From a virus (taxonomy: Duplodnaviria > Caudoviricetes), in the IMG/VR virus record IMGVR_UViG_3300030233_000116, positions 1-59,697 of that record: 59,697 nucleotides of DNA; one strand, 5' to 3'. Positions within the stretch are counted from its first letter, which is position 1, and the number at the start of each line of letters is the position of its first letter. The position numbers and the translations under genes are program-made. Below the pieces are notes generated by a model that was not told the DNA's origin, did no database searches, and was given only the letters and a program-made list of their open reading frames with translations. Below, piece after piece: positions 2,845-25,800 of the stretch.

Positions 2845-3234
2845 TTAGCAAGATCCAGCCGCCAAGCCTCCGGTCAGTTTAATCGTGAACGCAATCTGCA
2901 TTCCGATGTCTTCATACGAGACTTGATTTTGGGCGACGGCCTTTACCGTCGAGGTTCGCGTGTAACCCTGCTGAGTGCGCGTCGTGGTTTGAGTGGAAGG
3001 ATTCTCAACGCTCTCCGTCCGATTTGTAACGGCCGCGCGCACCTGACGATCGGTATGCGCCTTGCGGGTCTGCGTTGTTTTGCCGGAACTTGATCGAGTA
3101 GACGCATTGCCGCGCTGACTGTTGACTTGAGTCTGGCCGGTGGATTCTGATGAGCTTTGTCGCTCAGAACTGACCACCTGGCGGGTGACTGTTGCGCGAT
3201 CCGTTTCGACCCTGGTTTCGGTTTTGTTGGCCAT
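2845..3234 (-). CDS. Basic T/S/Q/R-rich extended-strand protein (second half of a split hairpin pair)
   Basis: 129 aa, TAATG-coupled to the upstream gene; C-terminal QIAFTIKL strand. Confidence 0.7.
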   Translation of the reverse strand: MANKTETRVETDRATVTRQVVSSERQSSSESTGQTQVNSQRGNASTRSSSGKTTQTRKAHTDRQVRAAVTNRTESVENPSTQTTTRTQQGYTRTSTVKAVAQNQVSYEDIGMQIAFTIKLTGGLAAGSC

Positions 3235-3719
3235 TATTCGTCAAAAGTGTTGGTAGTGGTCACGACGTCGCCGCCCTCGTTGGCGGTCTCCACATCTTGA
3301 TTCTGGGTTTGCTCTTCTGTCTGATTTTGCTCCTGCGACGTGATGGAGTTTTCGTTGACGTTTGCGTTTTCATTCGCGTTTTGCGACTCCGACGACTCGG
3401 TCACAGCGTCACCGCGATAGTCGTAGGTGGTCGCCTCACCGGCATGCTCTGTGCTGACGCTGGTGCGAGCCCCTTGGGAAACCTGTGATGTGTCGACGAT
3501 GTTTGGCGAAACCTCCACCGTCTCCTGATCGCCATCAGGAGATGAGGTAACCGTGCGCACCACCGCATTTTGACTGCGCACCACGGTGACCTGGAATTGC
3601 ACCTCGGTCGGTAATGCCGCCGCAATCCCCTGCTCGGTGATCGCATCCGATACGCCCTGGCGAATCCTTGCCAGAGTCTCCGTGATGAATGCGTCGAGTT
3701 CGTCGATTGGAACGATCAT
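3234..3719 (-). CDS. Acidic T/S/E/N-rich protein with Trypco2-like N-terminus (first half of a split hairpin pair)
   Basis: ELDAFITETLARIRQGVSDA...EVQFQVTVV resembles the Trypco2 helix+strand start. Confidence 0.65.
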   Translation of the reverse strand: MIVPIDELDAFITETLARIRQGVSDAITEQGIAAALPTEVQFQVTVVRSQNAVVRTVTSSPDGDQETVEVSPNIVDTSQVSQGARTSVSTEHAGEATTYDYRGDAVTESSESQNANENANVNENSITSQEQNQTEEQTQNQDVETANEGGDVVTTTNTFDE

Positions 3720-3722
3720 ATA

Positions 3723-4598
3723 TTACCATCCTGCAGGGGTATAGATTCGACCTTGGGCCGCATCAGGTTTGCGAGGCATCATTTCCAGCATCATTCGCGC
3801 GGATTGCGCTTTTTGTTGGGTGACCGATCTGGCGCTATCCTCAGACCAGAGTTCAGAATCGAGCATGCGTTGCAGGGCCAGCGGAACGAGTATCGCCGCG
3901 AAATGCCGATCCGGCCCGGGCAGAGATACCGGAGCCAACACTGAAGAGACAGCCAGCGAGACCGGTGCCACAATGGCGTCAAGCCGAATCCGGATGGCCG
4001 TGCTCGGCATTGGGTCGACCCGAAGATACTGCGCGATGGTGGCCCCGGCCGCCATGCCCACATCCTCCGTCCAATACCAAAGCGGGCTTCCGATGGTGCG
4101 AAAATCGGGATGCCGATAGCGATCGTTGTCCCGCCGGTCCCAATACTGCAGCACCTCTTCAGTCTCGATCACGCGAGGCTCAGAGGTGATGCGCTCCAGG
4201 GATAGCCCGATCTGGATGGCATCGGAGTAGATGGTGGCGCTCACCGTGCCGGACGGGCCGGTGTAGACATCGAGGAATTCCGTCACACCCACGATTTCGT
4301 TGTCGGCGGTATCCGTGCCGACCCTCACCGTTCGGCCAATGTCTTCCGTGGTGACAGAGCCGGAGACCACCGAGAACGATTCGGAACCCTCGGTGACAGA
4401 CAGAGAGACAGTCCGCGGTGCTGGCTGGTATCCCGAAAAAGTCGTGTTTTTGAGCCGGCTCGGCAGGAGCGACCAATACTCAGTGATCGCCGCGTTCATG
4501 GCGTCCACCACTTCGAGCAGATCGTTGCCGGCCAGCAATGAAGGATCCTTTACCTTCAGCCGTCGGCAGACACGATGGGCGAGTTGTACGCTATTCAT
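3723..4598 (-). CDS. Head-tail adaptor/neck protein
   Basis: N-terminal helices (LAHRVCRRL...DAMNAAI), GSPLWY and LRVDPMP motifs of podovirus-type adaptors. Confidence 0.65.
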   Translation of the reverse strand: MNSVQLAHRVCRRLKVKDPSLLAGNDLLEVVDAMNAAITEYWSLLPSRLKNTTFSGYQPAPRTVSLSVTEGSESFSVVSGSVTTEDIGRTVRVGTDTADNEIVGVTEFLDVYTGPSGTVSATIYSDAIQIGLSLERITSEPRVIETEEVLQYWDRRDNDRYRHPDFRTIGSPLWYWTEDVGMAAGATIAQYLRVDPMPSTAIRIRLDAIVAPVSLAVSSVLAPVSLPGPDRHFAAILVPLALQRMLDSELWSEDSARSVTQQKAQSARMMLEMMPRKPDAAQGRIYTPAGW

Positions 4599-5728
4599 CG
4601 TTCATCCGCCTCCTTCGGCAGTGGGTCGACAACGCCAAGCTCGGCCAGCGCCTCGGCGTAATCCTGTTTGATGTGTTCGCGCGCCTCAGGTGTGGCGAAA
4701 TACCGGCTTCGCATGGCCTGGTATCGGCAGAGAGGCAGCAAGATCAGCTCGACGTAGCGGTGCGGGATTTGCAATGGCCGATCGGTCTGGACGTCCTCCC
4801 ATTCGTAACGTCGCGGCTCGACCGAGACGTCCAGCAGGACAGACACCCCTGGATCCGGGACCGGCACCAGATACAGCCGGGTCAGCACGTTATCCGGTCG
4901 GCTCTGGTTGGTGCGTTCGATGTAGTAGGCCTCCGGCGTGCCTTGCGCCACTGCATTCGCCGCCTGCCCAAGAAACAGGTAACCGTATTGATCCAGCTGG
5001 GATCGGGAAGATAGCGCAATGAGCGGGATCAACGAACCGTCCAGCCTGGCCGGGCCTAATGCGTTTTGGACATCGCTTTCCAGCTCGACGTAAGCTTCGC
5101 CTGCATCAAATGCATAGGTGCGTGTGACGCGGGAAAAATAGTCATCTTCACGAAATCGAGCCCATACCTTCTGCATGGCCCAATTCAGAATGTTAACCGC
5201 CTGCAGTTTTGCATTCTCCAGCGAGCATGCCCCGCGCTCAAGACCCCAGAGATGAAAGATTTCCTGAATGACATCGTTCGCGCCCAGCCCCTCGCCGAGC
5301 AAGTCGCCCACGGCTGCAGCGGATGCCGAAAACAGCGCGGATCCCTGGCCCGCAAACGTGATGGTTTCTTCTGCATCGACGGATGCCGACACATCGATAG
5401 CCCCGCCGCCCGGATGCACGATGCCACCCAAGGCCGAAACCGCGGCGGATCCCGAGATGCTGGTCAACCCCCGATAAATCAGCGCCCCGGTGCCGCTGAT
5501 GGTGGCAGATGCATTCAAAGCGGCCGATGCCGGCCCTTTGATCCCGCCCACCGCCGCCACCGCGGCCGCAGCACTCAAGGCGCCCGCTCCCTGCATCGAC
5601 ATCGTCGCAGCAGGGGACACCGCGGCATTGGCATTCAAAGCCCCAGCCCCGGCAATGGTTACACTGCCGGCAGCCATTGAGACAGTTGCCGTTGCCTCGA
5701 TGTCTGCGGTGCCTTGGTGCGTCGGCAT
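4595..5728 (-). CDS. Adaptor/neck protein with N-terminal Ala/Gly/Ser repeat extension
   Basis: C-terminal GTPEAY...LYLVPVPD...LQIPHRY adaptor motifs; ~140-aa N-terminal A/G/S repeats. Confidence 0.6.
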   Translation of the reverse strand: MPTHQGTADIEATATVSMAAGSVTIAGAGALNANAAVSPAATMSMQGAGALSAAAAVAAVGGIKGPASAALNASATISGTGALIYRGLTSISGSAAVSALGGIVHPGGGAIDVSASVDAEETITFAGQGSALFSASAAAVGDLLGEGLGANDVIQEIFHLWGLERGACSLENAKLQAVNILNWAMQKVWARFREDDYFSRVTRTYAFDAGEAYVELESDVQNALGPARLDGSLIPLIALSSRSQLDQYGYLFLGQAANAVAQGTPEAYYIERTNQSRPDNVLTRLYLVPVPDPGVSVLLDVSVEPRRYEWEDVQTDRPLQIPHRYVELILLPLCRYQAMRSRYFATPEAREHIKQDYAEALAELGVVDPLPKEADER

Positions 5729-6135
5729 TACGCAAACGTGATGGTGAGAGCCCCGATAGCGAACTGGAAGGTATCGCCGTTCAGCACGGTGCGAGAGGCA
5801 GTCAAAGCGCCCCAGTAAAGCATGTTGCCGCCGGATGCCGCGTCGAAGATCGCAAAATGCGTAACGGTCCCCCAGTCCCCCGTGGCGGTTGTGAAGGTAA
5901 TGGCCGTCCCGTTCGACTTGACGCCAGTGCCAGAAGTGGCACCCGGCCAGTTCGTGGAGTTGTTGGTGACCGATGCTCGAGCATATGAGCCGCCCGTTGC
6001 TTCGGTGCCGCCACCGCTATCCGATGGGGCCGCAGTGAAAAGGGCAACATAGACCGTGCCCGGCCGGGTGTAATCACCCCCGCCAAGCACATGATCGTTG
6101 AGCGCCTTTTCGAGATAGTCAGACATTGCAGACAT
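5728..6135 (-). CDS. Phage tail-fibre/virion protein (MSDYLE...YVALFTAAP...GGSYAR family)
   Basis: Recognisable conserved family motifs YVALFTAAPSD, GGSYAR, WGTVTHFAIFDAASGGN. Confidence 0.8.
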   Translation of the reverse strand: MSAMSDYLEKALNDHVLGGGDYTRPGTVYVALFTAAPSDSGGGTEATGGSYARASVTNNSTNWPGATSGTGVKSNGTAITFTTATGDWGTVTHFAIFDAASGGNMLYWGALTASRTVLNGDTFQFAIGALTITFA

Positions 6136-6569: not shown

Positions 6570-8048
6570 TTAGCTTACGACGTAGCTCGGGATTTTCAGC
6601 CCGGCATATTCGATTGCGTGACGGAGCCGGATGGCACCAGGCACACGATCCAGACGATCCTTGCGGAGCGCCTGGCCGAAGACGGACGTGATGAAGATGT
6701 CCTTCACGAATCCGCCTTCATGCGACTCTTCCGAGCGACGATTGCGGAATTTGCCGTATCCGCGTCGTGCCGCCATCCGACCCAGCATGACAGAATCGGC
6801 GAAAGGAACGCCGTTCTTCGTGCAGGGGATGATGAGCGACCCGATTGGATGGGTCTTGGTGTGTTTTCCGGACCAGATACCGGTGTTCCAGGTCACCCCG
6901 CCCAGAGTGGTCACGCCGGCACCGGTTTCGGTGTCGTTGAGACGCTGAGTGATGGTGATCTTGTTGCCGTTGTTGCCCGTGGTATAGGCATACATGTTCA
7001 TCTTGCCAGCATCCGCGCCGGTCATGTTGTAGATGAGCAGGTAATGGGTGTCACCATCTTGAGAGAGGGTGTCGCTGGGGCCGAACTTGTAGGCGTAGTT
7101 CGGGAAGTACTTGAAATACTTCTTCTTGGTCTTCGCCGCCGCAGTGGCGTTGCCGCCACCGAGGATGTCGAAGGTGCCAGTGCCGGCCACGATCGCACCG
7201 CCGAGGAACGCTTTCGGATTCCAAGGCGAACCAACCGCACCTTCCCCGTCGTGATCGATAGGGTTGTATTTGACGATGCAGTTGTTGCGCACGTCGGCGA
7301 ACTCATCGGTGAAGATGTAGTTCAGCCCCTCACCGCGCTTGCCGCCTTCAAGCAGGTATTGCTTGTAAGTCGGGTCGCTCTCAAGAGAGAAGAGCGAATC
7401 GGTCACGCCGATGACACAGCGCTTGCGCACTGCCTTGCGACCCATCGCCGCGACGCGGCCGGCCAACATGCCGACACGCTGCCCCTGCACGCCCATGGAC
7501 AGGATTTCATCCCAGTTGAGCACCTCGTGGCTCTGCAGATCATCCAGCCCGGAGGCTTCGCCAGCATAGACGATGTTGTCGGTTGGCAGCCGCTCCTTGA
7601 AAAGCATGAAGAGCCGTTCGGATTTGATCCGGCCCAGCCACTCGCCGAGTTGCATCGGGATCTGTGCGACGAGTTCGCCGCGCATACCCATTTTCTCCTC
7701 GGAACGCTCGGTGAAACGCACTGCGTGACGAAGCCAGTCGACCTCAAGCGAATTGCTGCCGAGAAGAATTTCCTCGAAGTCATCCGACGAATCGAAAAGC
7801 TCCTCACCTTCATGCGGCTCATCATAGAGACCGCTGCCGGTGGTGAAGTTGATTTTCTGCCCGCGACCCTTGGACGTGTCCGTCTTGGTCTGGACGATGG
7901 AATCCATTCCCATGCCCTCGAATGGGGCAAAGAAATCGTTGTTGTGCTCGAAGAGGTCGACCCCCTTCTGCCAAAGCTCGCGCACGGCATTGGGTGCCAA
8001 CGCTGCGAGAGAATCCCCGGTGTTTGGGGAAGTAAGTTCCCAACTCAT
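6570..8048 (-). CDS. Major capsid protein (N4-gp56/DUF4043-like)
   Basis: DTSKGRGQKINF, VDWLRHAV, LESDPTY and terminal FGQAL motifs; AGGAGG RBS; follows scaffold. Confidence 0.85.
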   Translation of the reverse strand: MSWELTSPNTGDSLAALAPNAVRELWQKGVDLFEHNNDFFAPFEGMGMDSIVQTKTDTSKGRGQKINFTTGSGLYDEPHEGEELFDSSDDFEEILLGSNSLEVDWLRHAVRFTERSEEKMGMRGELVAQIPMQLGEWLGRIKSERLFMLFKERLPTDNIVYAGEASGLDDLQSHEVLNWDEILSMGVQGQRVGMLAGRVAAMGRKAVRKRCVIGVTDSLFSLESDPTYKQYLLEGGKRGEGLNYIFTDEFADVRNNCIVKYNPIDHDGEGAVGSPWNPKAFLGGAIVAGTGTFDILGGGNATAAAKTKKKYFKYFPNYAYKFGPSDTLSQDGDTHYLLIYNMTGADAGKMNMYAYTTGNNGNKITITQRLNDTETGAGVTTLGGVTWNTGIWSGKHTKTHPIGSLIIPCTKNGVPFADSVMLGRMAARRGYGKFRNRRSEESHEGGFVKDIFITSVFGQALRKDRLDRVPGAIRLRHAIEYAGLKIPSYVVS

Positions 8049-9904: not shown

Positions 9905-11116
9905 ATGAAGTCCAGTCATCGCGCGATTCAAAAAGCCAATCTAGGTGGTGCCCGAATCTTCCTTGAAGAGGATGATATTTTTTACCGCACCACGACAGGT
10001 CAGCACATCACCGTCGGTCCGGCCTCTTACGATCAAGACCCGGAAGACACAGTGCACGATCCTTATGATGAGGATGAGGACAGAACCTTTGATGACGCAA
10101 CCGACCCTCATGCGTTTGTTCCGGTCAGCACAATATTTTATTGGCTTTATCGAGCTAAAGAAATCCGGCTTCGGATCCGCAAAGAGTTTTCCGAAGAGAC
10201 AGATTCGGCAGAGCTTATTGTGGACGAAGAGGCTGAAGGAAATCCATTTAGCTGGGGCAGCATCAACGATCCCACCCTCGCCCCTCTTGCTGACGTCAAT
10301 GAAGGCCAAGAATCAATCGATAGCGATTGGGTGACTTTGAAGCGCGTTTACACCAACGATGGAACTGCAGATGATTATCCAGACTTGGCATTAAACGGAA
10401 GAAGAAACATGGTCTGGAAAGTGCCGGAATCCGCCTTTCAACATGGCGCCGGTTCATTTATGGTTCATCCGCAACCCGATTGGGATTCCAGCAACGCTGT
10501 TGACGATCCCGATAATTGGAAAAGAGAACTCATCGTTTCTATTAGCACAAGCGGGTCTCTTGTATTTCGCATTTACAACACAAATTACAAAGAAAAAGAC
10601 TCTAATGAGGAAGTGAAGATTGCGGAGTTTGATGATGTTGGGATGAAGCCGCTGGGAACCTTTGCAATCGATTCCTCGGATCTTGACTCTCCCCCTTCTT
10701 TGAATCGCAGGGTTTTGTTTGTCCCAAACAAAGCGGAATACGACGAAGAGGATGCAGCGGTCAGCGATTTGACCGATTTTTGGGGGGCGCAGGTGACGAG
10801 CAGGCCGTCTGGATACACTTACGCAACGGACGAAGCCATCGAGGGGTGGCACACAGCCTCATTTAATAAAAGTTTTTCAAAAGAATACTACCCAAAATTT
10901 GAATGGAATGCCGGGTATTATTGCGCCGGGTTTGCAACCACTGATTTTAACTGCACTGTGAGCGGGCCTGTTGATGGCATTACATCCACGGACACGCTGC
11001 CGTTTGATGGCGGGTTTTTATATAATTACGAACTTGCCGAGGCTTCAGTAAAATCATACTTCAAAGCAACTCGCACTTACACCCAAATCGATATTGAGGT
11101 GCTTGAAGAATTCTAA
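9905..11116 (+). CDS. Hypothetical acidic beta-rich protein, lower GC
   Basis: 403-aa ORF, D/T/S-rich, visibly more AT-rich than its flanks. Confidence 0.75.
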   Translation: MKSSHRAIQKANLGGARIFLEEDDIFYRTTTGQHITVGPASYDQDPEDTVHDPYDEDEDRTFDDATDPHAFVPVSTIFYWLYRAKEIRLRIRKEFSEETDSAELIVDEEAEGNPFSWGSINDPTLAPLADVNEGQESIDSDWVTLKRVYTNDGTADDYPDLALNGRRNMVWKVPESAFQHGAGSFMVHPQPDWDSSNAVDDPDNWKRELIVSISTSGSLVFRIYNTNYKEKDSNEEVKIAEFDDVGMKPLGTFAIDSSDLDSPPSLNRRVLFVPNKAEYDEEDAAVSDLTDFWGAQVTSRPSGYTYATDEAIEGWHTASFNKSFSKEYYPKFEWNAGYYCAGFATTDFNCTVSGPVDGITSTDTLPFDGGFLYNYELAEASVKSYFKATRTYTQIDIEVLEEF

Positions 11117-11382: not shown

Positions 11383-11557
11383 AAGCTTGGAGCGATTCGC
11401 GCGCCTGTTCCGCGAGTTCGAGACTGTCAAAAGTAAATCGGCGGATGGGTAGCGGCTCCCCGCGTTCCAACCGGAAGCCGGCAGGGTTGAAGGATTCATC
11501 CGGAATCCCCTCCTCGCCGACATAAAGCACCCACTGCGGGCGAACGATTATCTTCAT
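11315..11557 (-). CDS. Hypothetical protein
   Basis: Start overlaps the portal stop (11554-11557). Confidence 0.45.
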   Translation of the reverse strand: MKIIVRPQWVLYVGEEGIPDESFNPAGFRLERGEPLPIRRFTFDSLELAEQARESLQAYVDKHSHRSNSRRHKGTSRTAG

Positions 11558-13800
11558 AACAACACCTCCGATTTACCTGGGGCCAATGGCGCTGCAGCAT
11601 CGGCGGGAGGGGCGCCGCTCGCCCCGGCAGGAGGTGCCTGGATGGGCATCGGCACGACCAATTCATCTGGATTCGGAATGTGCATCGCTTTCAGCTGATT
11701 GCGGTAGAGAGGAGCAACCACTTCCTGAATCTGCGGTAGCAGAGAGTAAAACCGCTCGACCAGATCGACCGCCGCGCTGTTCGACTGAAGCAGTTGCTCA
11801 TTTCGAAAGCGGGTCATGAGCAGTTCGATGTCGAACTCCATGTCAGACACGGAATTCGCATCGATCTCCATCAGGATTTGATTATCCCCTTCGAAAATGG
11901 AGAAGGTCTCGCGCTCCTGAATATTTGCCAACAAGACCATGAGCGCCCGTTTCGCCGCCGATCCAAGCCCGCGCTTCAGATCCGTCAGAAAGAGGGAAAA
12001 CATCTCCTGGCCACTGTTCTCCATGTTGCGGATGCCGGTGGCCAATTCCGACGAATCCAGGCCAGCCGTTTGCGCATCGTTGGTATTTGCGACACCCGAT
12101 TCGTTCATCAAGACCTGCATGAAGAACTCCATCATCTCGCGCACCATCTTGTATTCGACGCTGTAGAGTTCTTTCGTCTGAATGAAATCCTCGATCGTTT
12201 TGCCGGAAACCAACGTGAACGTGCCGCCGGCATTCATCTTCAGGTCACGCATGCGCTCGCCCTCGACCACGGCATCCCATTGCACGGTGGTGACCCGGCC
12301 TGACTCGCCCATCGATCGGTTCCACCGATTTATCATCAAATCGATGATGTCCTGCAGGGTCTCATACATCTCCATGGCGCCCAGACCGTGCCAACGTTTT
12401 TCGACCTTATTGACCCGCACGACGTCGAAAGGCCGTTGCCCGTCGGGCGTCATATTGGCCGCGAAATCGTAGTAAATCGGCAGCCCGGATTTCCGGTCCA
12501 TCACCAACATGATGTTTTCGAGGATTCCATCGCCGTTGGCATCGTATCGCAGCCAGAATTCCGCGATCTCTGCCATCGTGCCGGGCGCGGTGATCTGCGA
12601 GTTCTGCGCTCCTTCGCCTTCGTCCAGCTCGACGCGCGGCTCATGTTGCGCGGTGCTGTATTCATCACCTTGTTCGGACAACGTTCGAAGCAATCGGATG
12701 GCTGCCGCTGTTTGTTCGATGTCTTCTTCGCCGGTCTGCGGATCCTCGCCCATCAAGCCCTGGCGCCGATATTGGTCGACCAGTTGAGCCACCGGCATAT
12801 CCATCAGATGCACGATGCAATCCGCGGATTGGACGTCCTCGGCATTCAGCGGGCAGAGAAAATCGCGATAATAGACGAGAGATTCCTCCGGTCCTTGATA
12901 TTGGACGATGCGCCGCTTCACAATATCGCTCGCCCATTGGCCCGCGTATTCCACCTCATCACGCATGACGACCAATCCGTCTTCCAACGTTTCGGCCAGG
13001 ACGGTCTTGTGATCTTTCTTCAAATGCACGAAAGGCTCATCGTCGGACCCCACGCTTTCCACCCACCGATCGGACTGCAGGATGTAATCGCCCGATGAAT
13101 CAAGGATGGGGTTTCCTTCGCCGTCCTGCAGGAAAGTCGCCATCTCCGAATAGATGTCGTCGCGCGTCACGTAGACCGTTTTGATGATGCCTTCCCCGCG
13201 GACGAACGCAGAGACCACGGCGGATTCTTTCACGCTCAGCACGTCAGCCTCGAGGAACTTCACTTTGGCGTATTTCTCGACCTTGTCGGCTGTCTCACGG
13301 TCGCCTTCGCCGACAGGGAAGGCCGCCATCCAGGGATCCGTGCCGAAAAAGTAGTTGATGGCCCTGGCAATCATCTGTCGCACCACGCGCCGCACGATCG
13401 GCACGACCAGATTCGAAACTTGGAAGATGCCGCCCTTGATCCATTTCCGCCACTCGACCTTGTTGTGATAGACCATCTCGTAGAGATAGCGTTTGCCGAA
13501 GAACGTGCGCTCCGGATTGTCGCCGATGTCGCCGCTATGCTCGGCTTGCTGATACCAGTCGCCGGAGGTGACGGTGCGCCCGAGTTCATCCTCGAGATTC
13601 TGCAGCCGCTTCTTCGCGTGCTCAAGCAACCGGTTTTCCTGATCTCGCGTGAGTTGGTAGGCGGATTTGAAGGGGACCAACGGGGCATCCACATCGGAAT
13701 CGGTGGTGGCCGCATCCTCCATGGCATCGAGGAAGCCCTCGGGATTTGGTAGACGGCCGGCAGCGGCCTCGATGGATTCCTGCAGTGTGTCGTCTTGCAT
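11554..13800 (-). CDS. Portal protein
   Basis: ~750 aa; GEGIIK, IAEFW..YD, RPF, WHGLG and ELATGI motifs of P22/T7-like portals. Confidence 0.85.
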   Translation of the reverse strand: MQDDTLQESIEAAAGRLPNPEGFLDAMEDAATTDSDVDAPLVPFKSAYQLTRDQENRLLEHAKKRLQNLEDELGRTVTSGDWYQQAEHSGDIGDNPERTFFGKRYLYEMVYHNKVEWRKWIKGGIFQVSNLVVPIVRRVVRQMIARAINYFFGTDPWMAAFPVGEGDRETADKVEKYAKVKFLEADVLSVKESAVVSAFVRGEGIIKTVYVTRDDIYSEMATFLQDGEGNPILDSSGDYILQSDRWVESVGSDDEPFVHLKKDHKTVLAETLEDGLVVMRDEVEYAGQWASDIVKRRIVQYQGPEESLVYYRDFLCPLNAEDVQSADCIVHLMDMPVAQLVDQYRRQGLMGEDPQTGEEDIEQTAAAIRLLRTLSEQGDEYSTAQHEPRVELDEGEGAQNSQITAPGTMAEIAEFWLRYDANGDGILENIMLVMDRKSGLPIYYDFAANMTPDGQRPFDVVRVNKVEKRWHGLGAMEMYETLQDIIDLMINRWNRSMGESGRVTTVQWDAVVEGERMRDLKMNAGGTFTLVSGKTIEDFIQTKELYSVEYKMVREMMEFFMQVLMNESGVANTNDAQTAGLDSSELATGIRNMENSGQEMFSLFLTDLKRGLGSAAKRALMVLLANIQERETFSIFEGDNQILMEIDANSVSDMEFDIELLMTRFRNEQLLQSNSAAVDLVERFYSLLPQIQEVVAPLYRNQLKAMHIPNPDELVVPMPIQAPPAGASGAPPADAAAPLAPGKSEVLL

Positions 13801-13826
13801 GGTATGCGGATACGCTACGACAACTT

Positions 13827-16800
13827 TCAACGACGGCGAAGCAACATTTCACGCCGCGCCAATGCGCGACCCTGTTCAAATGCCTTCTTCACGCGCTCGA
13901 AGTCGTCTTCGGTTGGGTTGCGGGTGTTGAGAGAGTTCAGGACCGACCGGAGCCGGATCCCGGCATATTTGGCGGAAAGAGCGACCAATTCCTGGTATTC
14001 ATCGGCGTCGAGTTCGATCTGTTCGCCGTTGCGGCTGATCTTGTTGGATGGCCGGGGCGGAGCCCATGCCAGCGATGGGTTTTCGCGGTTCCAATTGCGC
14101 AACATAACGTCGACCTGTTCGCTTCCTTCCATTTCCCTGGTCCAGGGGATCAGGAGTCGGGAAGCCGCATTGCCATCCTTGCGCACCGGCTCGCCGGTCA
14201 CCTGATCGATGCGCGGGGCCGCAAACTGCGGGATCGGCAGCATGTCGTAATAGACCTGAGCGGTGCGATAATCGCGCTGGAATTCATCCATGTTCCGCAA
14301 GGGTTGCCGGATGATATTCGGCACCAGGCCGGAGAGGAAAGAGGAGCGGAAACGCGATGCCGCAAAGTCCGCGCGGTCCGGATCGCTGAAGTTCTGAATG
14401 GTCTCCATCAGCCCGCCAATGCCGGCCGTGAAGGTCTTATCCTGCGTCTGGCCGACCATGTAAGAGAAAAACTGACTGGTTTTCTCCTGCGAGCCGCCAC
14501 CGCTCTTCGTCATGCGTGCAGCGTCGACGACCGTGCCAAGGATGGTGGCGAACGGTTCCAACCGCCCGTAGGAAACCGTCACGCCGTTGCGCCCGCCGAT
14601 CCGGATCGAGTAGGGGCCGCCCGAGGTGCGCGCCTGCATGTCGGCAAGCGCTGAATTGCTCGGGCGACTGCCCGAAATCAGGATGAGCTTGTTATCATCA
14701 TCCTCATCACCCTCGGCCATCCCGAGCAACATCAAGGTGCCGACCCAGGCGATCGTCTGTTCCGCCATATCTCGCACAAGCTGCGGGTGCGAGGTGAGGA
14801 CCGGTTTGCCATCGCGGAATTTGAAGAACCCGGCCTGCAACAATCGATAGGTCATCGGGATGCTTCCCAGCGGAGTCTTCCGAATGCCGGTGGCGAAGAT
14901 ATTGTATGGGGTGCGCACGAACGGAATGATGAAGGAAAGGATCTTGGCTTTCCTCCTGAGATCCTGAGCGTTGCGAGCCAACTGCTCCATCACGTTTCCG
15001 CCTTCGTCGGCATTTTTCAGTGGCGTCTGGAATGTCATATCGACCGCTTTGTCGACCGCGTATTGCCACGACATCGAGCCCGGCGTGTTCACTTCGTCAG
15101 CGATGAACTCCTCGAGCTTCTTGCCTTCGAGCCCCTTCTGTTTCCCGATCCGGAATGCCATAGCGCCCGTCTCCATGCGTCCGATGGTGAATTTGAACAG
15201 GGAATCCATGAAGAGGAGGAGTCGGCCGGGGATGCGAACAATACGCCCGGTGCGCCCCTTGATGGCCGGCTGCACCCCGCCCGCCTTATCGAAATCTTCG
15301 AACAGCTCGACCTGGCCGCCGAGCACTTCGGACTCGAAGAAATCGGACTCGGCATCCCACGCCTTCACCGCCATCTTCCAACCCTTCGCGAGCCCCGGCC
15401 TCAGTCCGGCCAGCAGGTGCTTGAACTCCCCGAACTGCGCGCCCTTCTGGTCTTTCACCATCAAGTTCATAACGGCTTCCATGCCGCGCTGAACCGTCAT
15501 ATCCCAAGCGGTGTTCGCGAAGTTGCCGGCAATATTCACGATGTGGGTCTGCGGCCCCGAGAGAATCCCGTTGATCCAATACTCGATCGCCATGTCGAAC
15601 GGATTGCCGCTGGCAGCCTGCGCGGTCCGGGCGACCCGAACGACCTGTTGCGCGTCGTCGATCGGAAAGCGGACCATAATTTCGCGGTTCTCGTATTCAA
15701 GCGGGAGCTTCTGCTGAGGGCCGGCTTCGGGCGCCGCCGGAGCGTCAGACCGCGGCATGCGCGTCCGGTTGCGGGCGGCCTGATCTTCGTTGAGTTCGAG
15801 TCGAGTTTGATCCTCGGGATATGCGCCGGGTGTCGGACCGACTGGCGCATCACTGACCGGCGTTTGCGGGACTTGAAGCAATGGACGGCGCTTCGGGACG
15901 CGACGTCGGACGGTTTTCCGTTTGCCTTGCTCTGTCTTCGGGGCAATTCCCATGGCTTCGAGGACTTGCGCCATTGCCGCATCAACATCCGCGTCGGAAA
16001 CCTCCCGGTTGCCCAAGGCTGCCGCCCCCAGCGCAACGCCGGTCTGGTCGATGTATTTGGCAACCTCTCCTGGCGATACTCCGCGCTCAAGGAGCTTGCG
16101 CACGGTGTCGCGATAACGAGTGTTCACAGCATCGGCATATCGATCCCGGACCGCCTCCACCTCCTTCGCTGTGGCCCCCATTTCCTTGCCGATGACCTCG
16201 AATGATTTCGCCCCGCCCTGCAACGCCCGGACGATCTTCGAGTCCTGCGAGGTGAACCCGGACAGAATGTTCTTCACGATGGCGGAGCCCTTGAGGATCA
16301 GTTCGACCTCGCCGCCGAAGATCATATCGAAGGTGATGCCCATGGCGTTGAGCGCCTTCTCGATGGCTTTGATCCGGGCGCTTTCGGCATCGAGGAGCCG
16401 CTGTTTTTCCGCTTGATCGGCTTTCTCGATCTGTTTCCGGACTTTCGATGGCGGGGTGAAGATGGCTTTAGCCAGAAACTCCCGATGTCGTTCCGCCGGG
16501 GACATGAAGGGATCTTTCCTCGAGGCCAGTTGACGACCCGCTTCCGTGCCGGTCTGCCGGTAAGCCCACACGAGGCCGGTCAGGATTCGCCGGCGCTCCG
16601 GGGTGAGCGGTTTACTCATCTCCTCGGCGACTACCACTTGGACGGCCTTCGTCTCCTCCGGGTTGAGCGTGCCGCCAGCCATGCCGCGCTCAAGAGCCAT
16701 TTCGATGACGCCGCCGGGATTCTCAGCAGCCATGCGCCGACCGGCTTCATTCCAGTCGGCTTCTTTCTCGCGAACGAGCTTGCTGCCATAAACCTCATCG

Positions 16801-19800
16801 ACCCCCATCACCTCCGGGCCAAGCGCGGAAAACCCGCGATCCGGGTTACCAACGGTCCGTTGGCCGGATGTTTCGCCCTTGGCCTTTTCGACCATGGCAT
16901 TGACTTCCGGCTCGGAGATGGCCGCCATGATGCGTTCAAGGGCTTTATCGCCTTCAGGCGTGAGGGTGCGGGCGTAGAGAATCGAATCGCTCTGCGGGTT
17001 GAAGCGCTGGCTCAGTGGAATGACGTTGCCTTTGTCGTCGTAGGTTACAGGGTCGGCGGATTTTACCGCATTGGGGTCTGTGATACCGATCTCATGGCCG
17101 ACCTGTTCGGTTCCATAGGCGAGGTTAAACTTAAATGTTTGGTAGTCATCTTGCAAAGAAGCAAAATCCTGACCCAACAACATTTTGAGTAACTGACCAT
17201 CCACGGACCCCGCGTATCGTTCGATAGTCTCTCTGGTAATGGGGAGCCCCATGATCGTGCGGTTAGTCAGCCAACGAATGTCTTCCTCGGTTAAATTGGT
17301 TTGATCAAATACCTTTCCGGGCCGAATCCACGCATCAATGACTTGTGGCGTAGAACCTCTTTCAATTCTGGTCTGCGTCACAGGATCATAGAGCGCCAGC
17401 GTATCGTTAAAATCCTTCGGTTTACCCCGATACCGTTGTAAAAACCGCTCCGCTCCTTCTCTTGTGTCAGCAAACCAAACAACTCCCTTTTCTGCGTCAT
17501 CGGAAAGGAGGTTGAGGTTGAAGCGCTTAAATCCGCCGTTCAAAGTGCCGTGGTAGCCTTTGATTGTGTAACCAGCCGCTCGCGCCGCCTCATCCACCAT
17601 CCGCTGTGCGGTCTCCATGTCGCCACGCTCGACCGCTGCGAGATACTCGGCGTCCTCATCTGTGATGGTGCGGGTGCCAATCCAGTGCTTTTCGATGTAA
17701 TCATCGACAGCATTGTCGATGCTCTTGGGCGTGTATTTCGCACGCATCTCGATCACCTTGTCAATTTCCCTGTTTTGCTGCCTGATGTTATCGATGCTCT
17801 CAAAGTCAGTGTTCGGCTCGTAAAGCTCCTGATCCTCTTTTGAGAGCGCGTTGTATTCATCCAGCTCCTCTTGCATCATCTCGATGTCAGATTCGTTTTC
17901 ACGCTGGATTTTTCGAAGCTCCTTCAAGGAGTAATTATCAGGATGCAGAAGCTCGATGACGTCGTCGCCGGATCCCGTGTCGCCTTCGGCAACAGCCAGA
18001 ATTTCATCCTGAATAGCTTTTGGGCTGGCCTCGATCTTGCGGGTAGCGAGCGGAGTTCGATCATGCTCGATTTCCAACCCCTCTTCAATAGCCGCATCTT
18101 TCAATGCCTTGAGTTGAGTGCGGTTGGGAGCGCCTTGGTAATAAACCGTTTTGCCGTCCTTATAATCTTTCGCAATGCGAACGTATCCCAACGCCCCAGG
18201 ATTGCCCAAAATCAACCCATAACCATCACTGAAAAAGTGATGATGCTCACCCGTATCGACAAACCTTCCATCTGGAGACTGCCAGCCGGCAACCAATTTC
18301 CCTATGCCAACAGTCGGCTTCATTGCCTCAAAGCGTTCCCGAAAAACCTCTTTATTCTTCGCGGCTGTTGCAGCGTCGAAAGCGCCGTATTGCGGGGAGA
18401 TCGACCGGCTCCCAATCGCAAGCGTATCGGCTTCAGAAAAACCGCCATCACGAAGGCCGCGCAAAAATTCACCCTTTAGCCTCTTGTCCTCGGCTTCCAT
18501 TCTTTCTTCCGGTCGTGTCATAACCTCCGCCGCAAGAGCCTGCAGGTTTTTGCGCGCTGACTTCAAATCACCATAGAAAGCCTCATACATCCGCATTACT
18601 TGGGCGCGAACCTCATTCCAGGCTTTCGTCTGGTCTGCATTGAGGTTGCTGTCGGGTTGATTTTCTTCGATCTCAGTAAGACTGAGCCCGCCAACCTCGG
18701 CGAATTCTTTACTATCAAGCGCTTTTTCGACTTGTTTCCAAATGGCGTGCCCTTGAGTGGATTTAGGCCAGTCGTCAGGATCTTGAATGTCAGAATCCAA
18801 AATGCGCTTTATTGAGCGATACCGGCTTTTCTGATCTTTGGAGAGATTGGCGTTTTCAATCAGCGCCGCCATTGCTCCAAACATGGATTTGCCCTCCATC
18901 GCCGCCTCTATCTCCATTTCAATAGAGCGGGCGCCAAGCGCACCGGAGATAGGTGCCACCTCATCCGCCAACGCCCGCAAATCCTCCAAAGCTGACCGCC
19001 GTTTCCCCTCCCATTCCCGTTCCGACGCCCGAATTTCCTCCAAGGCTGCTTCACGCACGCGCTCCCGTTCTTCCCCGCTGAGATCATCAATCGTCGTCTC
19101 GGGATTCGCCCATTCCGGCCAGGCGTCCGGCACGTCGTCGACGTATTGCCGCCAGTCGAGTTCGGGCAGCGGACGGGCATCCATCGATGCCTCATCGCCC
19201 AGTCGATCATTGATAGCAAAAGCGCGGCGCCGGCTGTCGCCCTGCAAATCCTCAATCTCGCCGATTCGCCGCCACAAAACATCTTCGGTTTCCTGCGAAA
19301 GTTCTGGGGAAATCGCTCGAGCACCCAATGCGGCCCGAGCATCAATTCCTTGGCCTTCCAGGCGGGATCGGAGCACGCCCAATGCATTGCTCAGGATCTT
19401 CGAAACGTACTGCGGGGAAACCTCCAGTTCGCGCGCGGTCTCCGCTGCGGTCTTACCGGAAAGCAGATTCTCCACCATGGCGCGCGGTCGGTCCGGAAGT
19501 TTCTGGACAGCAGCCCGGAGAATCCCGCGGATGTCCCCTTGAGCGGCCGTCTCGCGAACGTTCTCATCCTCGCCGATGACTTCCGCCAGGGTTTCGCCGT
19601 CATCAGTGATCGGTTCGTCCAGACTGGCGGACATCCGCGGACGTCGGGATTGCCTGCGGTATTCGGAATTGAGAGCGTTGGAGATGGTCCGATTTGCATA
19701 GGCCGCAAACGGGCCGGACTCGGGGTTGTAACCTTCCGCCGCTTTCACCAACGCCAGGCGAGCGCTTTGAAGAATGTCGTCATATTCACCGAGGTTGCGG

Positions 19801-22800
19801 TAACGGTTCGCCCACCAGCCAGCCAGCCTGAGGTTGTCAGTAACGAGGTTTTGCACCTCTGCCGTACGATCGGAAAGGTCGAGGGTGAGTTGGTCGGGAT
19901 CGATTGTGCGCGCCCCCATCGCTTGCTCTTCTGCCCCCGCTGTTTCCTCCGGCCCCTGAAGATCGCGTTCCAACTGTAAAAACTCTGCCTGCTTGGCCGC
20001 GTATTCCTCTTCCTTCGGCCATTGCTGTTCGGATGCTTGTTGCAGAGGTGTGATTTGCTCTTGCTGCTTCTCAATGCGCGCACGAATCGAATTCACCTTT
20101 GCCTCGCCAGCACGCGCAGAACGCACGACTGAGTTGAGCAACCCTTCAGCCGTTTTAGGGGACCCATTATCCCACATCTCACCCGATGGCGTCTTGATTT
20201 CAGCCTCAAAAGTCACTCGCAACTCCTCAAACGATGCCAAGGCGCCGCGAGCAACCAGGGTGACAGGCACCTCATTTATGCGAAAGCTGATCTCTGCGGT
20301 ATTGTCTGCATTTGCAATCTGGACCGCCTTTTTGCGAAGCTGGTCCATGATATTGCCAAGCGCCTCGACGGCTTCCTTTCGATCCGTGAATACACCGTTT
20401 TCGCCGAAATCGTAAGTAACCGAGTCGCCCTCGAACTGAGCCGACATCTTATCCGAAATGGCTTCATACTGTTTCGCCAGCGCCGTATCCGAGCGGATAG
20501 AGGATTCCAAGTACCATAACCTTTTGCGAGACTCCGCAACCTCATTCAAAAATCCGCGCCGTTCGCCATCCAGCTCGGCGATCTCGCCTTCCAGGTCTGC
20601 CAAGCGCAAAACCCTGGTATCGCCGGAAAGCTGGGCGACCTGCTGGCGCATATTCATCACCACCTCGGACGCCGCATCGTCAAACTCGCGGCCTGAGACG
20701 TTGCCCTTCAATACCTGATGCACGAACGCCTGTTTGGCGGCCATCATATCGTAGATGGCAACGTCCATCGTGCTCTCCACGCCATAACGGATGTTGCGAA
20801 CCGCGAAATCGCTATCGTAATCCGGATTCGCCGAACCATCCTTCAGCTTGGCGCGCGTGAAGATATTCCCCTGCCGGATGATTCGACCATCGCGTTGCTC
20901 AAGCATGGCTGGCGTCATTGAGCGCGGCGGATCAAGATGATGTGCCGCCACCAACCGCTCCTGCATGTTCACTCCGACCCCGAGCTTTTCCGTGGATCCA
21001 AGTATCACCCGGACTTCGCCGCTGTTCACCTTCTCAAACAATGCTTCCCGGCGTTTGTCAGTATTGTGCTCGTGGATGATGGCGATTTGGTTTTCCGGGA
21101 TTCCTCGCTTGATGAGCTTGTCCCGAATGTCGCGATATAGATTGAATCCGCCGCCTGAAAATTCGGCATCCTCATCTGGACCTTCTTTTTCCTGCTTGTC
21201 GGGGTCGGTCTCACCGTCGGCTTCTTCCTCAATCGAAAGCGAGCCGCCAACAAAGGCATCAAGCGTATTAGTGTTGATCGGCCGAAACCGATCCAAGAAC
21301 ACGACCTGCGCGCCCCTCCGATATTCGTTCTCCTGATGAATCTTCGCAATTTCCTCAACCGCGCGATTAACCTTCGACCCTGGTTCATCCAGAGCATCCT
21401 GCCGCACGAGCCGCGGATCTACAGACGCCGCCATCCCAACCTGCATCGTTACGATTGGGACCGCGCGGGCAGCCTCTTTCTCATCGCTGCTACCGCTCTT
21501 CATCACCCGCTCAAACTCCGCGCCAATCTCCATGATCCAATCATTAATGCGGGACACCGCGGGAGTCTGGGGAACGACCTGTAAATCCGGCAGGTTGCGA
21601 CCATCAGAATTTCGCATCTTGGGAACCTTCAGCCCAAGTTCTTCATTCCCCATCTTCACGTCGAATCCTGAGCGGATCATGGCGACCAACTCGGCGCCGT
21701 TGGTGAATCGATTAAAGCGACTCACACGCTTCCATGCGCCCGACCAAGTGCGCTCCAGCTTCGTGTTTAATCGTCCGAAGGTGTGAGCAAATTCATCGAA
21801 AGTGTTAATACCAAAATCTTCCAGCACCGATGGCGTGGCCAGTTTCAACATGATGTATGCTTCGGCCACACTATTGGTAATCGGGGTCCCGGTGGCCAGG
21901 ATCACATTGCGCCCATTGTTGCGGTCCTGAATGTATTTCGTCTTCATCTCCAGACCCATCGCGCGTTGGCTTTCGTCGTTCGGAATGCCCTTGATGCGCT
22001 GCATGTTGGTGATGATCGACGCCTTCTTGTAAGCGTGCGCCTCATCAATGAAAAGGGCGTCTACGCCGGTCGATTCAAAGTCGATCACGTCATCCCCTCG
22101 CTTTTCGAGACCGTCCATCATCCGGCGAAGCTTGCCTTCCATCCGCTTTTTCGCCTTTTGCAACTGCTTGGTGGTCGGCGAATCTTTCCCCTCACTCAAG
22201 CGCATGCGATTGATGGCCTCGCTCAATTCCGCAAGCTTATCGCTGAAAAAGCGCCGAATGGTTTCCTTCGATGGCAAAATCCGATCGAACTGCGGTTGCG
22301 TGACGATCACCATGTCGTAATCGCCCGTGGCAATCTGCGAGATAAACCGAGCGCGACTCTTGGCGTTGAACGTTTTTTCCGTGGCGACCAAAACCTTTGC
22401 TGCCGGGTAAGCCTGCATGACGGATGCCGCAAACTGGCCGATGGTCGCCTTTTGCACCACGATCATTGGCTTTCGCGCCAAGCCGAGCCGCTTCATTTCC
22501 ATCGCTGCGACGATTTGCGAGAATGTTTTGCCAGAACCAACCCCATGCGCCATGACCGCCTTACCCTCCTGCAAAATTCGGGCAATCGCGGATCGGCGAT
22601 GCCCATTCATCCAGACGACATTAGAAAGCCCTGGAATATTGTGGCGCGATTGATCGCCGTCCCTCACCAGATAGTCGCCACTGTAAACAGGGGCGACCAC
22701 GCTGTTCATGACGTCGTTATATTCCTGCTCGACCACTTCTTGCACGGACACCCCCTCGACCTGAACGGCAGTGGTCTTGATCCAACTTTCGAAACGCCGC

Positions 22801-25800
22801 TCCATGTCGGCCATCTTCGCTTTCGCGGCCTGCGTGGCAGGAAAATCCGTCTCTGTCTTCGTTTTGCCGCCGCCAAGACTGACAGTGGTCGTGATTTGTG
22901 GCGAAGTGCCCTTCAACGCATGGGTGAGAAGTTCCGCCCCGCTCAGTTTTCCGCTTTTCCAATCGACGGAATTTCCGCTGGCTAGCGGATTGCTCACAGT
23001 CACAACGTGCGTGTTGGCAGCCGCCACGTAGGAAACCTTAGTTTTGGAGCCGAGGAGATCGGTTGCAAACGCGGAAAGGACGCGCTCAGGAATCCAGCGT
23101 GACGCCAGGGAAAAGTAAATATCCTTTAATGGGACCGTCGGAGGAATCACCCCCTCCAACGCAGCAATATTCGCCCGGTATCGAGAATCTGTTTCCGCCG
23201 CCGCACGAGCGGCCCGAAGACGTTTGCGAACATTTGAACTGAGGTATCGCTCGGCGATTTCCAAACGTCCCGTTGCGGGATCGAGATAGGCGCGCCCGGT
23301 TTCGACAATGCGGTCTTCCGCTTCGCGTTTCGAAATTCCCAGCATATTGGCCACGGAATCAGCATCGACTGATCCCTCAAAGGCCATCAAGATGTTGATG
23401 GCATCGTTGATATTCTCCGCTTTCTCCGGCTTCGAGACCGGTTCCCGGACTCGTTTCGAGAAAATATCCGCCTTGCGCCACGCTTTTTTGACCTTCTTCG
23501 TTCGCTGGTCATAGCGGTCAAACTCTTCTTCGAGCGATTGAAGCAGCGGATATTCCGGATCGTCCTCGAGGAATGCCGCTTTTTCGAGGTGCCGATATTT
23601 CTTTGTAAGGGTGCCGTTGCGCGCGATGAAGCGGTCATAAGCCGCGTTGAGCCGTCGACGCATGGCGTCTAAATCGGCGATGGAAATATCCTGATCGACT
23701 TCACCCGCGATCAGCTCGCGGGCCGCGTCCCGAACCATCATCCAATCATCGGCAATCACCTCCCGATCGCGCCGTTCCTTGTCGGTGATTGGCTCGGTAT
23801 GTTTGTCGCCGTAGTTCTTTTGCGTCAGCCAACTCGCTGGCTCCAATCGACCTTCAACGACTTGAAAAAACTGGCCATCCTTTTGGACGTAACTTCCAGG
23901 CTTGTCGCCGGACGCCGCAACCTGGCTTCGCTGCACCGGCCGGGCGTCGCCTCGCTTAAAAATGTCTTTCGGGAATCGCTCGACGACCGCCGTCAACTCT
24001 GCCCCCGTGTCCTGCCCCGGCTTTGCCACCAAGGCATAATCGCCAGCGGAATACATGGTGCCTTCGAGGGAGTGGCGCCCAAGCGCCATCTCCGGGTTGG
24101 CCGCATAGTATTCGTTGACGAAAATGTCCGCCATCTGCCCTTCGACCTCGGCCTCCCCGACTTTATCCCGGCTGATCCACGAAGCGCCCTCAAACGGTTT
24201 TCCGTCTTTCTTGCGCATCACGATAATGTCCGTGGTGACTTCTGTGCCTGCATTGGCCGCAAATGCGTTGTTTGGCAGCCGGACGGCCCCCACGAGATCG
24301 GCTTTTTCCGCCAGCAACCGACGCACCTTAGCATCGCTCTTGTCCATCGTGCCGTCAGAGGTGATGAAGATCACCAACCCCCCAGGTCGCGTCATGTCCA
24401 GGCCGCGGGCAAAAAAGTAGTCGTGAATGAGCAAGTCGGGGTAATCCTTCGCACCTGGCACCCGGTAGTCACCAAAAGGCACATTTGAAACCACAAGATC
24501 CATGGAAGCCGGAGGGATCGCCGCCCGCTCAAACCCAGTGACTTGAACCTCGGCTTGCGGGTAGAGCTTCGCAAAGATGCGGCCCGAAAGGTTGTCCAGC
24601 TCAACACCAGTCAATGCGCTTTGCTCGGCGATAGACTCAGGCATGCGCCCGAAGAAATGACCGACACCACCGGCCGGTTCAAGCACATCACCCCCACGGA
24701 AGCCCAACCGCTCCGCAATCGACCAGACACCATCAATGACGCGCGGATCGGTGAAGTGCGCGTTGAGTGTGGACGCCGCTGCAGACTCGTATTCTTCCTC
24801 CGAAAGCAATTCGCGAAGCCGAGCGTTCTGCTTTGCGTAGGCAGGTTTTTTCTCGTTGAAATACTCTCCAGCCCACCCCCATCCGGTGTATCTGGCAAGA
24901 ATGTCCTTTTCCGCTGGCCCCGGATTACGATTCTCGGATTCCAAGCGCCGAAGCAATTCGATTGCCTCAATATTGGCGTCGAGCTTGGCCGCATTGCCTC
25001 GAGGTGCAATTTGCACCCCGGCAGGAATCCGGTGATTACGATCGGCTGGCTTTAACTCAGCCGATCGGTCGGGTCTTCCGGTTCCTTGAGGCGGCGCTGA
25101 ATCTCCTCGCTCGCCATCTTTCTCAACTCCTTCTCGCTGGCCGCCGGGAATTGTGTTCGGAAGAACTCTACCAGTTTTTGCATTGGCGTTTTGTCCTTCT
25201 TCATTTGATTTGATATTACTCTCTGCTGTTGCAAAAGTAAACAGATCCTCTTGGACTGCCGCGGGAGCCTTGCGCAACTCCTGCTTGATTTTGGCCCGAA
25301 CCTTTGGCTTCGAAGCCTTTACTGCGGGTGGAAGTGTCTCCACCCAGTCGAACATGTCGGGCGTATTCGGATCTAGCCGCCGGGCGCCAAGGCTCTGAAC
25401 TTGGCCCGTGCCTCGGCTTCGACTTCCGCCGCGCGGGGATTCTGGTTTCCGAACCGCAGTTTCCCGATCGCCCGCTCGACCGCCGCTTCCTCGGCCGGGT
25501 CGATTTTCGGGGGTTCCCAATAATTCCCTTGGCTTTTCTGGTTGTTTGGCTCGCTCATCTACCAGATTATACGTCGCGCGGTCTTTAACATCAACCGATT
25601 CCCCGTCCTTTTGCGCAACCAATTTGGGGCCTTCGGTATTGTCGTAGAGCGCGCCTGTATCAGCCAATGCCAACAGGTTTTTGGCTCCGGCATTAAAGCT
25701 GGAATGCGCGGTGAAAAGCGCCTCATACGGCACCCATCGCCCCTTGCCTTTTGCTCGCAAAACAGCTCGCGTGATGGATTCGGCGGGATCAATCGTGACC

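Follow-up and report, generated by a model that had tools for sequence, protein, structure and literature searches.

Extended rope proteins have been described in the tails of the podophages A1002 and GP4. According to the A1002 paper, a rope domain of ~300 Å binds 11 dimers by augmented beta-sheets and the ropes thread dimers of the Gp80 type; the same paper has the GP4 rope protein separately encoded. The Pepco proteins, also named Trypco1 and Trypco2, are reported to form beta-barrels of 9-10 subunits that withstand heat and detergent and have amphipathic helices at the base (10.1101/2025.11.14.688446), and Trypco2/Pepco genes have a neighbouring gene for a trypsin-like or caspase-like peptidase, according to another paper (eLife 2020). 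Here we describe a pair of low-complexity genes, A and B, in an uncultured virus of the Caudoviricetes (IMG/VR record IMGVR_UViG_3300030233_000116; the whole stretch of 59.7 kb, ~98% complete, is called the window below), whose products appear to be the two halves of one very long beta-hairpin cut at its tip. The pair and its parts are as follows.

3234-3719, minus strand: gene A, 161 aa
3573-3719, minus strand: gene A residues 1-49, conserved base domain (homologue alignments, AlphaFold2, profile hidden Markov model (HMM))
3237-3572, minus strand: gene A residues 50-161, acidic arm rich in T, S, N, Q and E (composition, charge); stop codon TAA at 3234-3236
3232-3236, minus strand: TAATG, stop of gene A overlapping the start of gene B, translational coupling (sequence)
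2845-3234, minus strand: gene B, 129 aa
2905-3234, minus strand: gene B residues 1-110, short hydrophobic tip motif and arm rich in T, S, R and Q, net charge +6 (composition, alignment)
2848-2904, minus strand: gene B residues 111-129, closing strand G-M-Q-I-A-F-T-I-K-L, then a short tail with a terminal Cys (alignment); stop codon at 2845-2847

Coordinates and TAATG coupling are exactly those of the initial annotation, and its hand counts were exact as well: there are 22 acidic and 3 basic residues among residues 50-161 of A (112 aa), and 10 acidic and 16 basic ones among residues 1-110 of B. The base domain of A consists of a helix (residues 5-30) and a strand, LP-x-E-V-x-F-x-V-x-V-V, that contains F42; AlphaFold2, given 29 aligned homologues, places the helix and an extended segment to about residue 48 at a predicted local distance difference test score (pLDDT) above 90. 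The arm of A ends in a tip motif, GG-D-x-V-x-T-x-x-x-[YF]-[DE], that is conserved in two homologue alignments. B begins Met-Ala, M1 being invariant and A2 present in at least 90% of 15 B proteins. F42 is near-invariant among 11 phmmer-derived A homologues and F116 invariant among the 15 B proteins; these are the two residues that had been proposed as a contact pair.

A spacing of ~11 residues between Pro/Gly breaks had been claimed for both arms. In A the exact run of four Pro/Gly is improbable as a chance event (P = 0.008 over periods 7-15, against 20,000 random placements); in B the spacing is not significant (P = 0.20). The positions are 61, 72, 83 and 94 in A (with 63, 103, 149 and 150) and 79, 90 and 111 in B (with 33, 42, 51, 122, 123 and 127). 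Both window arms carry their Pro/Gly-punctuated 11-residue units at the end next to the base, which agrees with an antiparallel register; general autocorrelation of the window arms gave no strong period. Cysteine recurs at or near the extreme C-terminus of B in 6 of 15 type-1 (two-gene) pairs, namely the window (2848-2850, minus strand), L011, L012, L013, L035 and L038 (L-numbers denote related loci). In a three-gene type described below a C-terminal Cys is found in both A proteins (L042-L048), and another is conserved near the N-terminus of B. This recurrence suggests disulfide locking at the base or the tip.

Relatives were reached from phmmer homologues, through the protein P0007 in genome and metagenome contigs, to a two-row alignment of major capsid proteins (MCPs). 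An exhaustive phmmer search of 1.84 billion representative proteins gave ten A homologues of 97-187 aa, which have in common the first ~50 residues and a short C-terminal motif (GG, then Y or F before an acidic residue) on either side of a low-complexity middle of highly variable length. P0007 led to two contigs of metagenome-assembled genomes (MAGs) that encode a capsid protein, a Gp80-like protein, a long adaptor-like protein, a 287-aa protein, A (156 aa), B (124 aa) and fibres, and alignment of two capsid proteins retrieved 40 related IMG/VR loci. An HMM of the A N-terminal domain matches 22 of the 40, together with four MAG or metagenome contigs and the window, or 27 of 45 sources. Ten of the 18 loci without a match stop before the expected site; the other eight run past the homologue of the 291-aa protein that is encoded upstream of A, L015 and L019 by only 0.5-0.9 kb.

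In every locus with enough sequence A is followed by a B-like gene with a Met-Ala start, a T/S-rich body and a closing strand with the invariant Phe. A and B are a conserved gene pair of an uncultured podophage clade, and since the pair is kept in many related viruses we regard both as real genes. The gap between the A stop and the B start is 0 to 21 nt in the relatives and all three relative frames occur (offsets 0, 1 and 2), which indicates that the split is real and old, and which makes a conserved frameshift or readthrough fusion, here rejected, unlikely. Fused single-gene homologues, which the initial annotation had proposed to look for, were found neither in any locus nor among the phmmer hits; a separate search for longer proteins, which covered 560-2000 aa, also gave none, the range 282-560 aa being covered by the length-free phmmer search alone.

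Other routes yielded less. A, B, the 291-aa protein, P0002 and P0003 had no matches as single-protein queries against viral contigs, nor did P0003 against metagenome contigs or A and B in word-index protein searches. The closest relatives in cellular databases, L004 and L005, lie on MAG contigs labelled Luteolibacter and Verrucomicrobiaceae, which is a lead to the host phylum; L004 belongs to the MAG G001, and of 401 genomes from the phylum of that MAG only G001 itself yielded an A homologue, the 400 further genomes having none.

That A and B belong to one structure is indicated by the way their lengths change together. Across 15 type-1 pairs (six loci with lengths identical to listed relatives being omitted as duplicates) protein lengths range from 103/75 to 319/287 aa (A/B) and are correlated with r = 0.996, following A = 1.01 x B + 29.7; r is 0.98 when the longest pair is dropped. 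When the base domain of A and the closing strand of B are removed, the arms range from 55/50 to 273/268 aa and differ between A and B by a mean of 4.5 +/- 4.3 residues. Arm lengths thus co-vary with a slope of one, the point on which the initial annotation had staked its hairpin. The same is seen in comparisons of sister loci, taken from the pair lengths and the capsid tree:

L016 vs L034: A +67 aa, B +63 aa
L011 vs L004: A -28 aa, B -24 aa
L035 vs L011: A -24 aa, B -28 aa
WIN (window) vs L012: A +20 aa, B +17 aa
L010 vs L013: A +212 aa, B +200 aa

The repeats within the arms are matched as well. Both arms of L010 have a period of 18 (z 13.7 in A and 15.3 in B) with ~12 units each, those of L016 have periods of 33 and 32 with 3 units each, and those of L012 have 9 and 9. 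Gene conversion between the arms was considered as the cause and is ruled out, blastn having found no DNA similarity between A and B arms; the match is therefore maintained by selection and not by sequence homogenisation.

Further supporting an in-register arrangement, a three-gene subtype (L042, L044, L047 and L048) encodes A1 (acidic), B (neutral) and A2 (basic), the last also with an A-type N-terminal domain, and has arms that are close to pure dipeptide repeats. The lengths (A1/B/A2) are:

L042: 236/164/231 aa
L044: 234/164/234 aa
L047: 165/96/160 aa
L048: 246/176/246 aa

Between L044 and L048, whose capsid proteins are 95% identical, there is exactly one 12-aa indel in each of the three partner proteins, 13-27 residues past the base strand in both A proteins and 21-32 residues ahead of the closing strand in B. 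Three equal indels at mirror positions are what a bundle in register would produce, with the A arms leaving the base and the B arm returning to it. They fit no arrangement other than an antiparallel one in register, and they place the N-terminal domain of A and the C-terminal strand of B at the same end. Charge points the same way: in 10 of 12 pairs the charges complement each other better with the arms antiparallel than with the arms parallel, and by our own sums the Stouffer values are -5.6 antiparallel and -1.2 parallel, or -4.4 and 0.0 without L010.

Shown directly are conservation of the pair, matched lengths, matched repeats and register-matched indels, and from the indels follow pairing and antiparallel topology. 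The proposal that A and B are halves of one hairpin split at its tip has gained from length co-variation, from equal repeat periods and numbers and from the indels, and is strongly supported. These results also bear on the possibility that A and B are unpaired, intrinsically disordered virion or ejected proteins whose lengths are alike by some other shared constraint. Such proteins would fit the low-complexity polar composition, the low model confidence of the arms and the lack of significant beta periodicity in single sequences; they would leave unexplained the slope-one co-variation over a five-fold length range, the equal repeat periods without DNA similarity and the three indels of one size at mirror positions, and the arms, with scarce Pro and abundant Thr and Val, are unlike typical disordered linkers. 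We regard disorder as very improbable.

The late genes of the window lie on the minus strand in the order below, followed by A, B and several small fibre-like proteins.

33786-35627, minus strand: large terminase
13827-32012, minus strand: 6061-aa protein, a single open reading frame (ORF) between terminase and portal
11554-13830, minus strand: SU10-type portal
6570-8048, minus strand: MCP
5728-6135, minus strand: Gp80-like fibre protein (PF23140, E 3.5e-48; PDB 8jou chain E, 8e-15)
4595-5728, minus strand: 377-aa protein, an adaptor paralogue in its C-terminal part
3723-4598, minus strand: 291-aa adaptor-fold protein, directly upstream of A (AlphaFold2 pLDDT 87, Foldseek)

The model of the 291-aa protein finds by Foldseek the GP4 chains 8jov_G (1.4e-5) and 8jov_2 (2.7e-5) and then adaptor or neck chains of A4, VP1, Pa223, DEV, N4 and SU10, and hhalign (99.3%) relates the protein as a paralogue to the C-terminal part of the 377-aa protein. 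It is presumed to be the ring on which A and B would dock. The tandem adaptor-fold paralogues (3723-4598 and 4595-5278, both minus strand) mirror the two adaptor-like chains of the GP4 portal-tail complex. Among the 24 A/B loci with a complete interval from MCP to A, A stands directly after the 291-aa homologue in 22, the exceptions being L012, where the A/B pair lies between the capsid block and the adaptors, and L038. Tail-fibre genes follow B in the relatives. The initial annotation had seen no nozzle, tube, sheath or tape-measure gene, and within the sensitivity of the profiles none of these families was detected in the window proteins scanned; the large downstream proteins of the relatives are fibre-like, with none of the four families detected among them.

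The adaptors and the Gp80-like gene raise the question of ropes. A and B might be twin rope threads that run antiparallel through a stack of small dimers docking on them by beta-sheet augmentation, the arms not bound to each other and arm length setting the number of beads, as in GP4 and A1002. The adaptor fold and, in part, the Gp80 fibre protein are common to the clade and GP4, the repeat units of 18 and 32-33 aa are near the ~20 residues per dimer that we derive from the A1002 numbers, and a two-fold symmetric dimer would naturally accept two antiparallel strands. Set against this, a search of the plus-strand ORFs of the retrieved stretches found a Gp80-like (PF23140) gene in just 4 of the 24 loci with a complete MCP-to-A interval (the window, L004, L011 and L035) and none in the other 20; no conserved, A/B-specific bead gene was found downstream; and the A/B arms lack the hydrophobic positions of the extension described next, those of the three-gene type being near-pure dipeptide repeats. 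In all four Gp80 loci it is the first adaptor paralogue that is the likelier rope: it has 377, 503, 345 and 323 aa in the window, L004, L011 and L035, compared with 226-265 aa elsewhere, the difference being an N-terminal extension of Gly/Ala-rich repeats. This extended paralogue is probably a rope fused to an adaptor and serving a chain-like fibre, in parallel to A1002 and GP4. We rejected A/B as the rope of the Gp80 fibre on gene co-occurrence, and think twin threads of any kind quite unlikely. As to the Gp80-like genes themselves, that of L011 is of double length (270 aa) and L035 has two copies.

Turning to the conformation of the arms, they are rich in T (18-23%), S, V and G, poor in P (1.4-1.8%) and almost devoid of large hydrophobic residues. 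Pooled over the A arms, residue identity is 0.114, 0.103 and 0.104 at lags 2, 4 and 6 and 0.073 and 0.078 at lags 3 and 5, an excess of even over odd lags that is clearer in A arms than in B arms. From these features we infer beta structure that is polar on both faces. A prediction of the 1:1 complex of A and B, with a 15-row alignment for each, gave an interaction prediction score from aligned errors (ipSAE) of 0.01-0.02, which weighs neither way.

We suggest the following arrangement. A and B would be structural proteins lying side by side, antiparallel and in register. The helix and first strand of A and the last strand of B would form the base, with F42 and F116 as its conserved core; the A arm would lead outward and the B arm back, and the C-terminal aromatic motif of A would meet the N-terminal motif of B at the far tip, translational coupling supplying the two tip pieces in succession. 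Because the arms would be polar on both faces and are scarcely hydrophobic, and because the edges of a sheet need satisfying, it is most likely that several copies join as a long beta-barrel or needle exposed to water. At the base the helices would be arranged as a ring seated on the second of the tail's adaptor rings, and the whole may resemble a stretched-out Pepco/Trypco barrel. Arm length would then set the length of an accessory tail extension; the window pair would reach ~37 nm at full extension, and would be shorter with tilted strands. We put the probability of such an axial polar barrel or needle at about 0.45.

A more specific version would have ~12 A:B split hairpins closing into a single-walled, fully polar barrel tube, tens of nm long and suspended from the adaptor ring. 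In such a tail tube two or three low-complexity chains would take the place of globular tube proteins; its length would be tuned by concerted gain and loss of repeats in the partner genes, and it would be related to the Pepco/Trypco immune effectors in architecture and perhaps in evolution. By our calculation from standard barrel geometry, a 24-stranded barrel would have a C-alpha diameter of ~4.4 nm, which leaves enough room for double-stranded DNA. We hold this version tentatively and judge it somewhat unlikely.

Several observations count against the axial barrel or needle. AlphaFold2 draws low-confidence strands in the A arm at a pLDDT of ~40, an ESM Atlas model has a pLDDT of 0.42, and lag-2 periodicity is not significant for single sequences (Stouffer 1.4 for A arms and -0.7 for B arms). 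The charge complementarity noted in the window holds for the acidic side, A arms being net acidic in 19 of 19 pairs, and fails for the basic side, B arms being net basic in only 7 of 19. One sister comparison is imperfect (L023 vs L034, A +10 aa with a change of 0 in B). Kinship to Trypco2, which the initial annotation had suggested, could not be upheld: hmmscan gave no Trypco2 match at E up to 10 for A, for B, for A residues 1-60 or for the C-terminus of B, nor did the PF19631 profile against all six frames of the record at the same limit, and hhalign of 15 A N-terminal domains against 3 Trypco2 sequences gave 4.3% over 34 columns, a weak test in that the Trypco2 alignment is small and poorly aligned. 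The resemblance to Trypco2/Pepco is thus an architectural lead and not family membership, sequence kinship being undetectable. In a quick-search capsid tree, rooted at the midpoint only, the eight loci that run past the adaptors without A/B form one clade (SH-aLRT, the Shimodaira-Hasegawa-like approximate likelihood ratio test, 100) nested among A/B lineages, and the A profile has no match in 5 of 5 whole records of this clade, three of them 98-100% complete, whereas it matches in all 5 control records. On this tree A/B would have been lost or replaced once. As these complete genomes do without the pair, A/B is not indispensable for the virion design and is dispensable or replaceable, and the role of DNA conduit that had been suggested for it is weakened; a five-fold length range would also be unusual for an axial DNA channel.

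The loss and the length range fit an accessory fibre better, and so favour another arrangement, in which each A:B pair (or A1:B:A2 trio) is a free-standing, single-layer ribbon of two or three strands, a lateral whisker or tether that spaces distal fibre proteins from the neck. The pairing evidence from lengths, repeats and indels applies to it equally, and a flat sheet of three strands would accommodate the three-chain version well. Sequence change is faster in the arms than in the end domains, the MCP and the adaptors (in L023 and L026 the A/B arms are 70/68% identical, the ends 93/95% and the MCPs 88%), as is typical of exposed, host-facing parts, and tail-fibre genes follow the pair. Polar single-layer sheets do form rods, as in staphylococcal SasG. 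A polar ribbon of just two strands, more than 100 residues long and with its edges free, would however tend to aggregate, and has to our knowledge no precedent; there is no sign of a lateral position, and no receptor-binding domain on A or B. We consider the ribbon unlikely, and prefer the axial barrel or needle.

Neither protein could be assigned to a described family. A and B had no match in Pfam or PHROGs, permissive thresholds included, and so none to a needle, tube, nozzle or tape-measure family there; tblastn against 50,697 phage records found nothing, ESM Atlas searches gave no usable lead, and the sequence search of the PDB covered the neighbouring proteins. The literature on Trypco2, on low-complexity or threonine-rich podophage proteins, on phage beta-sheet fibres and on rope proteins, searched in its main texts, describes no such gene pair. 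An appendage of the kind proposed here would be new to that literature.

Other features of these genomes may be recorded here. Domains recognised in the 6061-aa ORF are Zeta_toxin (E 1.7e-31), ddrB-ParB, SNF2 helicase and sigma-70 region 2; its product has the look of a giant polyvalent protein, probably packaged in the virion, which we take to be akin to the giant proteins of Bcep22-type phages. A 403-aa ORF at 9905-11116 (plus strand), on the opposite strand within the head gene block, matches nothing in Pfam or PHROGs. The record end truncates another ORF, of at least 778 aa (57361-59697, minus strand), whose N-terminal part matches tail-fibre PHROGs; in a circularly permuted genome it would be a continuation of the fibre block beginning behind B. 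In the three-gene type A2 is followed by a gene for a protein of ~126 aa with a lipobox-like N-terminus and a C-terminal hydrophobic segment, which resembles a unimolecular spanin:

L042: 14903-15283, spanin-like gene after A2
L044: 15225-15605, spanin-like gene after A2
L047: 14943-15332, spanin-like gene after A2
L048: 15824-16207, spanin-like gene after A2

If A and B do form a length-matched hetero-oligomeric beta structure, they would represent a new means by which a virus makes a long appendage of adjustable length, from nearly featureless polar sequence whose register would be held only by a small base domain and a tip. The length of such an appendage would evolve by paired repeat expansions in separate genes, and compensatory indels between genes would offer a rare, purely genomic read-out of the register between two proteins. 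A function would also be gained for low-complexity orphan genes of a sort usually ignored in phage genomes, together with a natural scaffold of programmable length for protein engineering, and a link might emerge between phage tails and the bacterial immune effectors that form Pepco/Trypco barrels.

Among known systems, the podophage needle (P22 gp26) and tail tubes (N4 gp54, DEV gp75, A1002 gp37) are like A and B encoded just after the adaptor genes, and are extensions of a short tail such as A and B would form; those parts, however, are single-gene coiled coils or globular tube domains. With the ropes (the GP4 rope protein and the fibre-dock domain of the A1002 nozzle-rope gp39) A and B share an extended, repeat-bearing, non-globular character in a podophage tail with related adaptors, and length that would set appendage size, as the tandem repeats and five-fold length range of A/B suggest. 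They differ in that they mostly occur without Gp80-like bead genes, consist of two or three length-matched chains, are far more polar and have no sequence similarity to the ropes. In pore-forming toxins such as anthrax protective antigen and alpha-haemolysin, Ser/Thr-rich hairpins of several subunits form one long barrel that is partly water-exposed on both faces; the toxin hairpins are single-chain, much shorter and membrane-inserting, and A and B have no toxin-like domain.

The closest likeness in architecture is to Pepco/Trypco2 (PF19631), the protease-activated beta-barrel pore effectors of bacterial defence. As in the three Trypco2 sequences that we compared, A and B together would have an N-terminal amphipathic helix, a first strand of alternating hydrophobic residues, a hairpin and an h-x-h-x-h closing strand. 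Unlike in Trypco2, the hairpin has 100-270 residues per arm and is split over two genes, and its faces would both be polar, so that a barrel inserting into a membrane is not expected. The pair also lies in a phage tail module and not in a defence locus, without an adjoining peptidase gene; a Pfam scan of its neighbours and of other proteins of the window found no peptidase family. Now that Pepco/Trypco barrels have been reported, the architectural analogy to A and B is all the more interesting.

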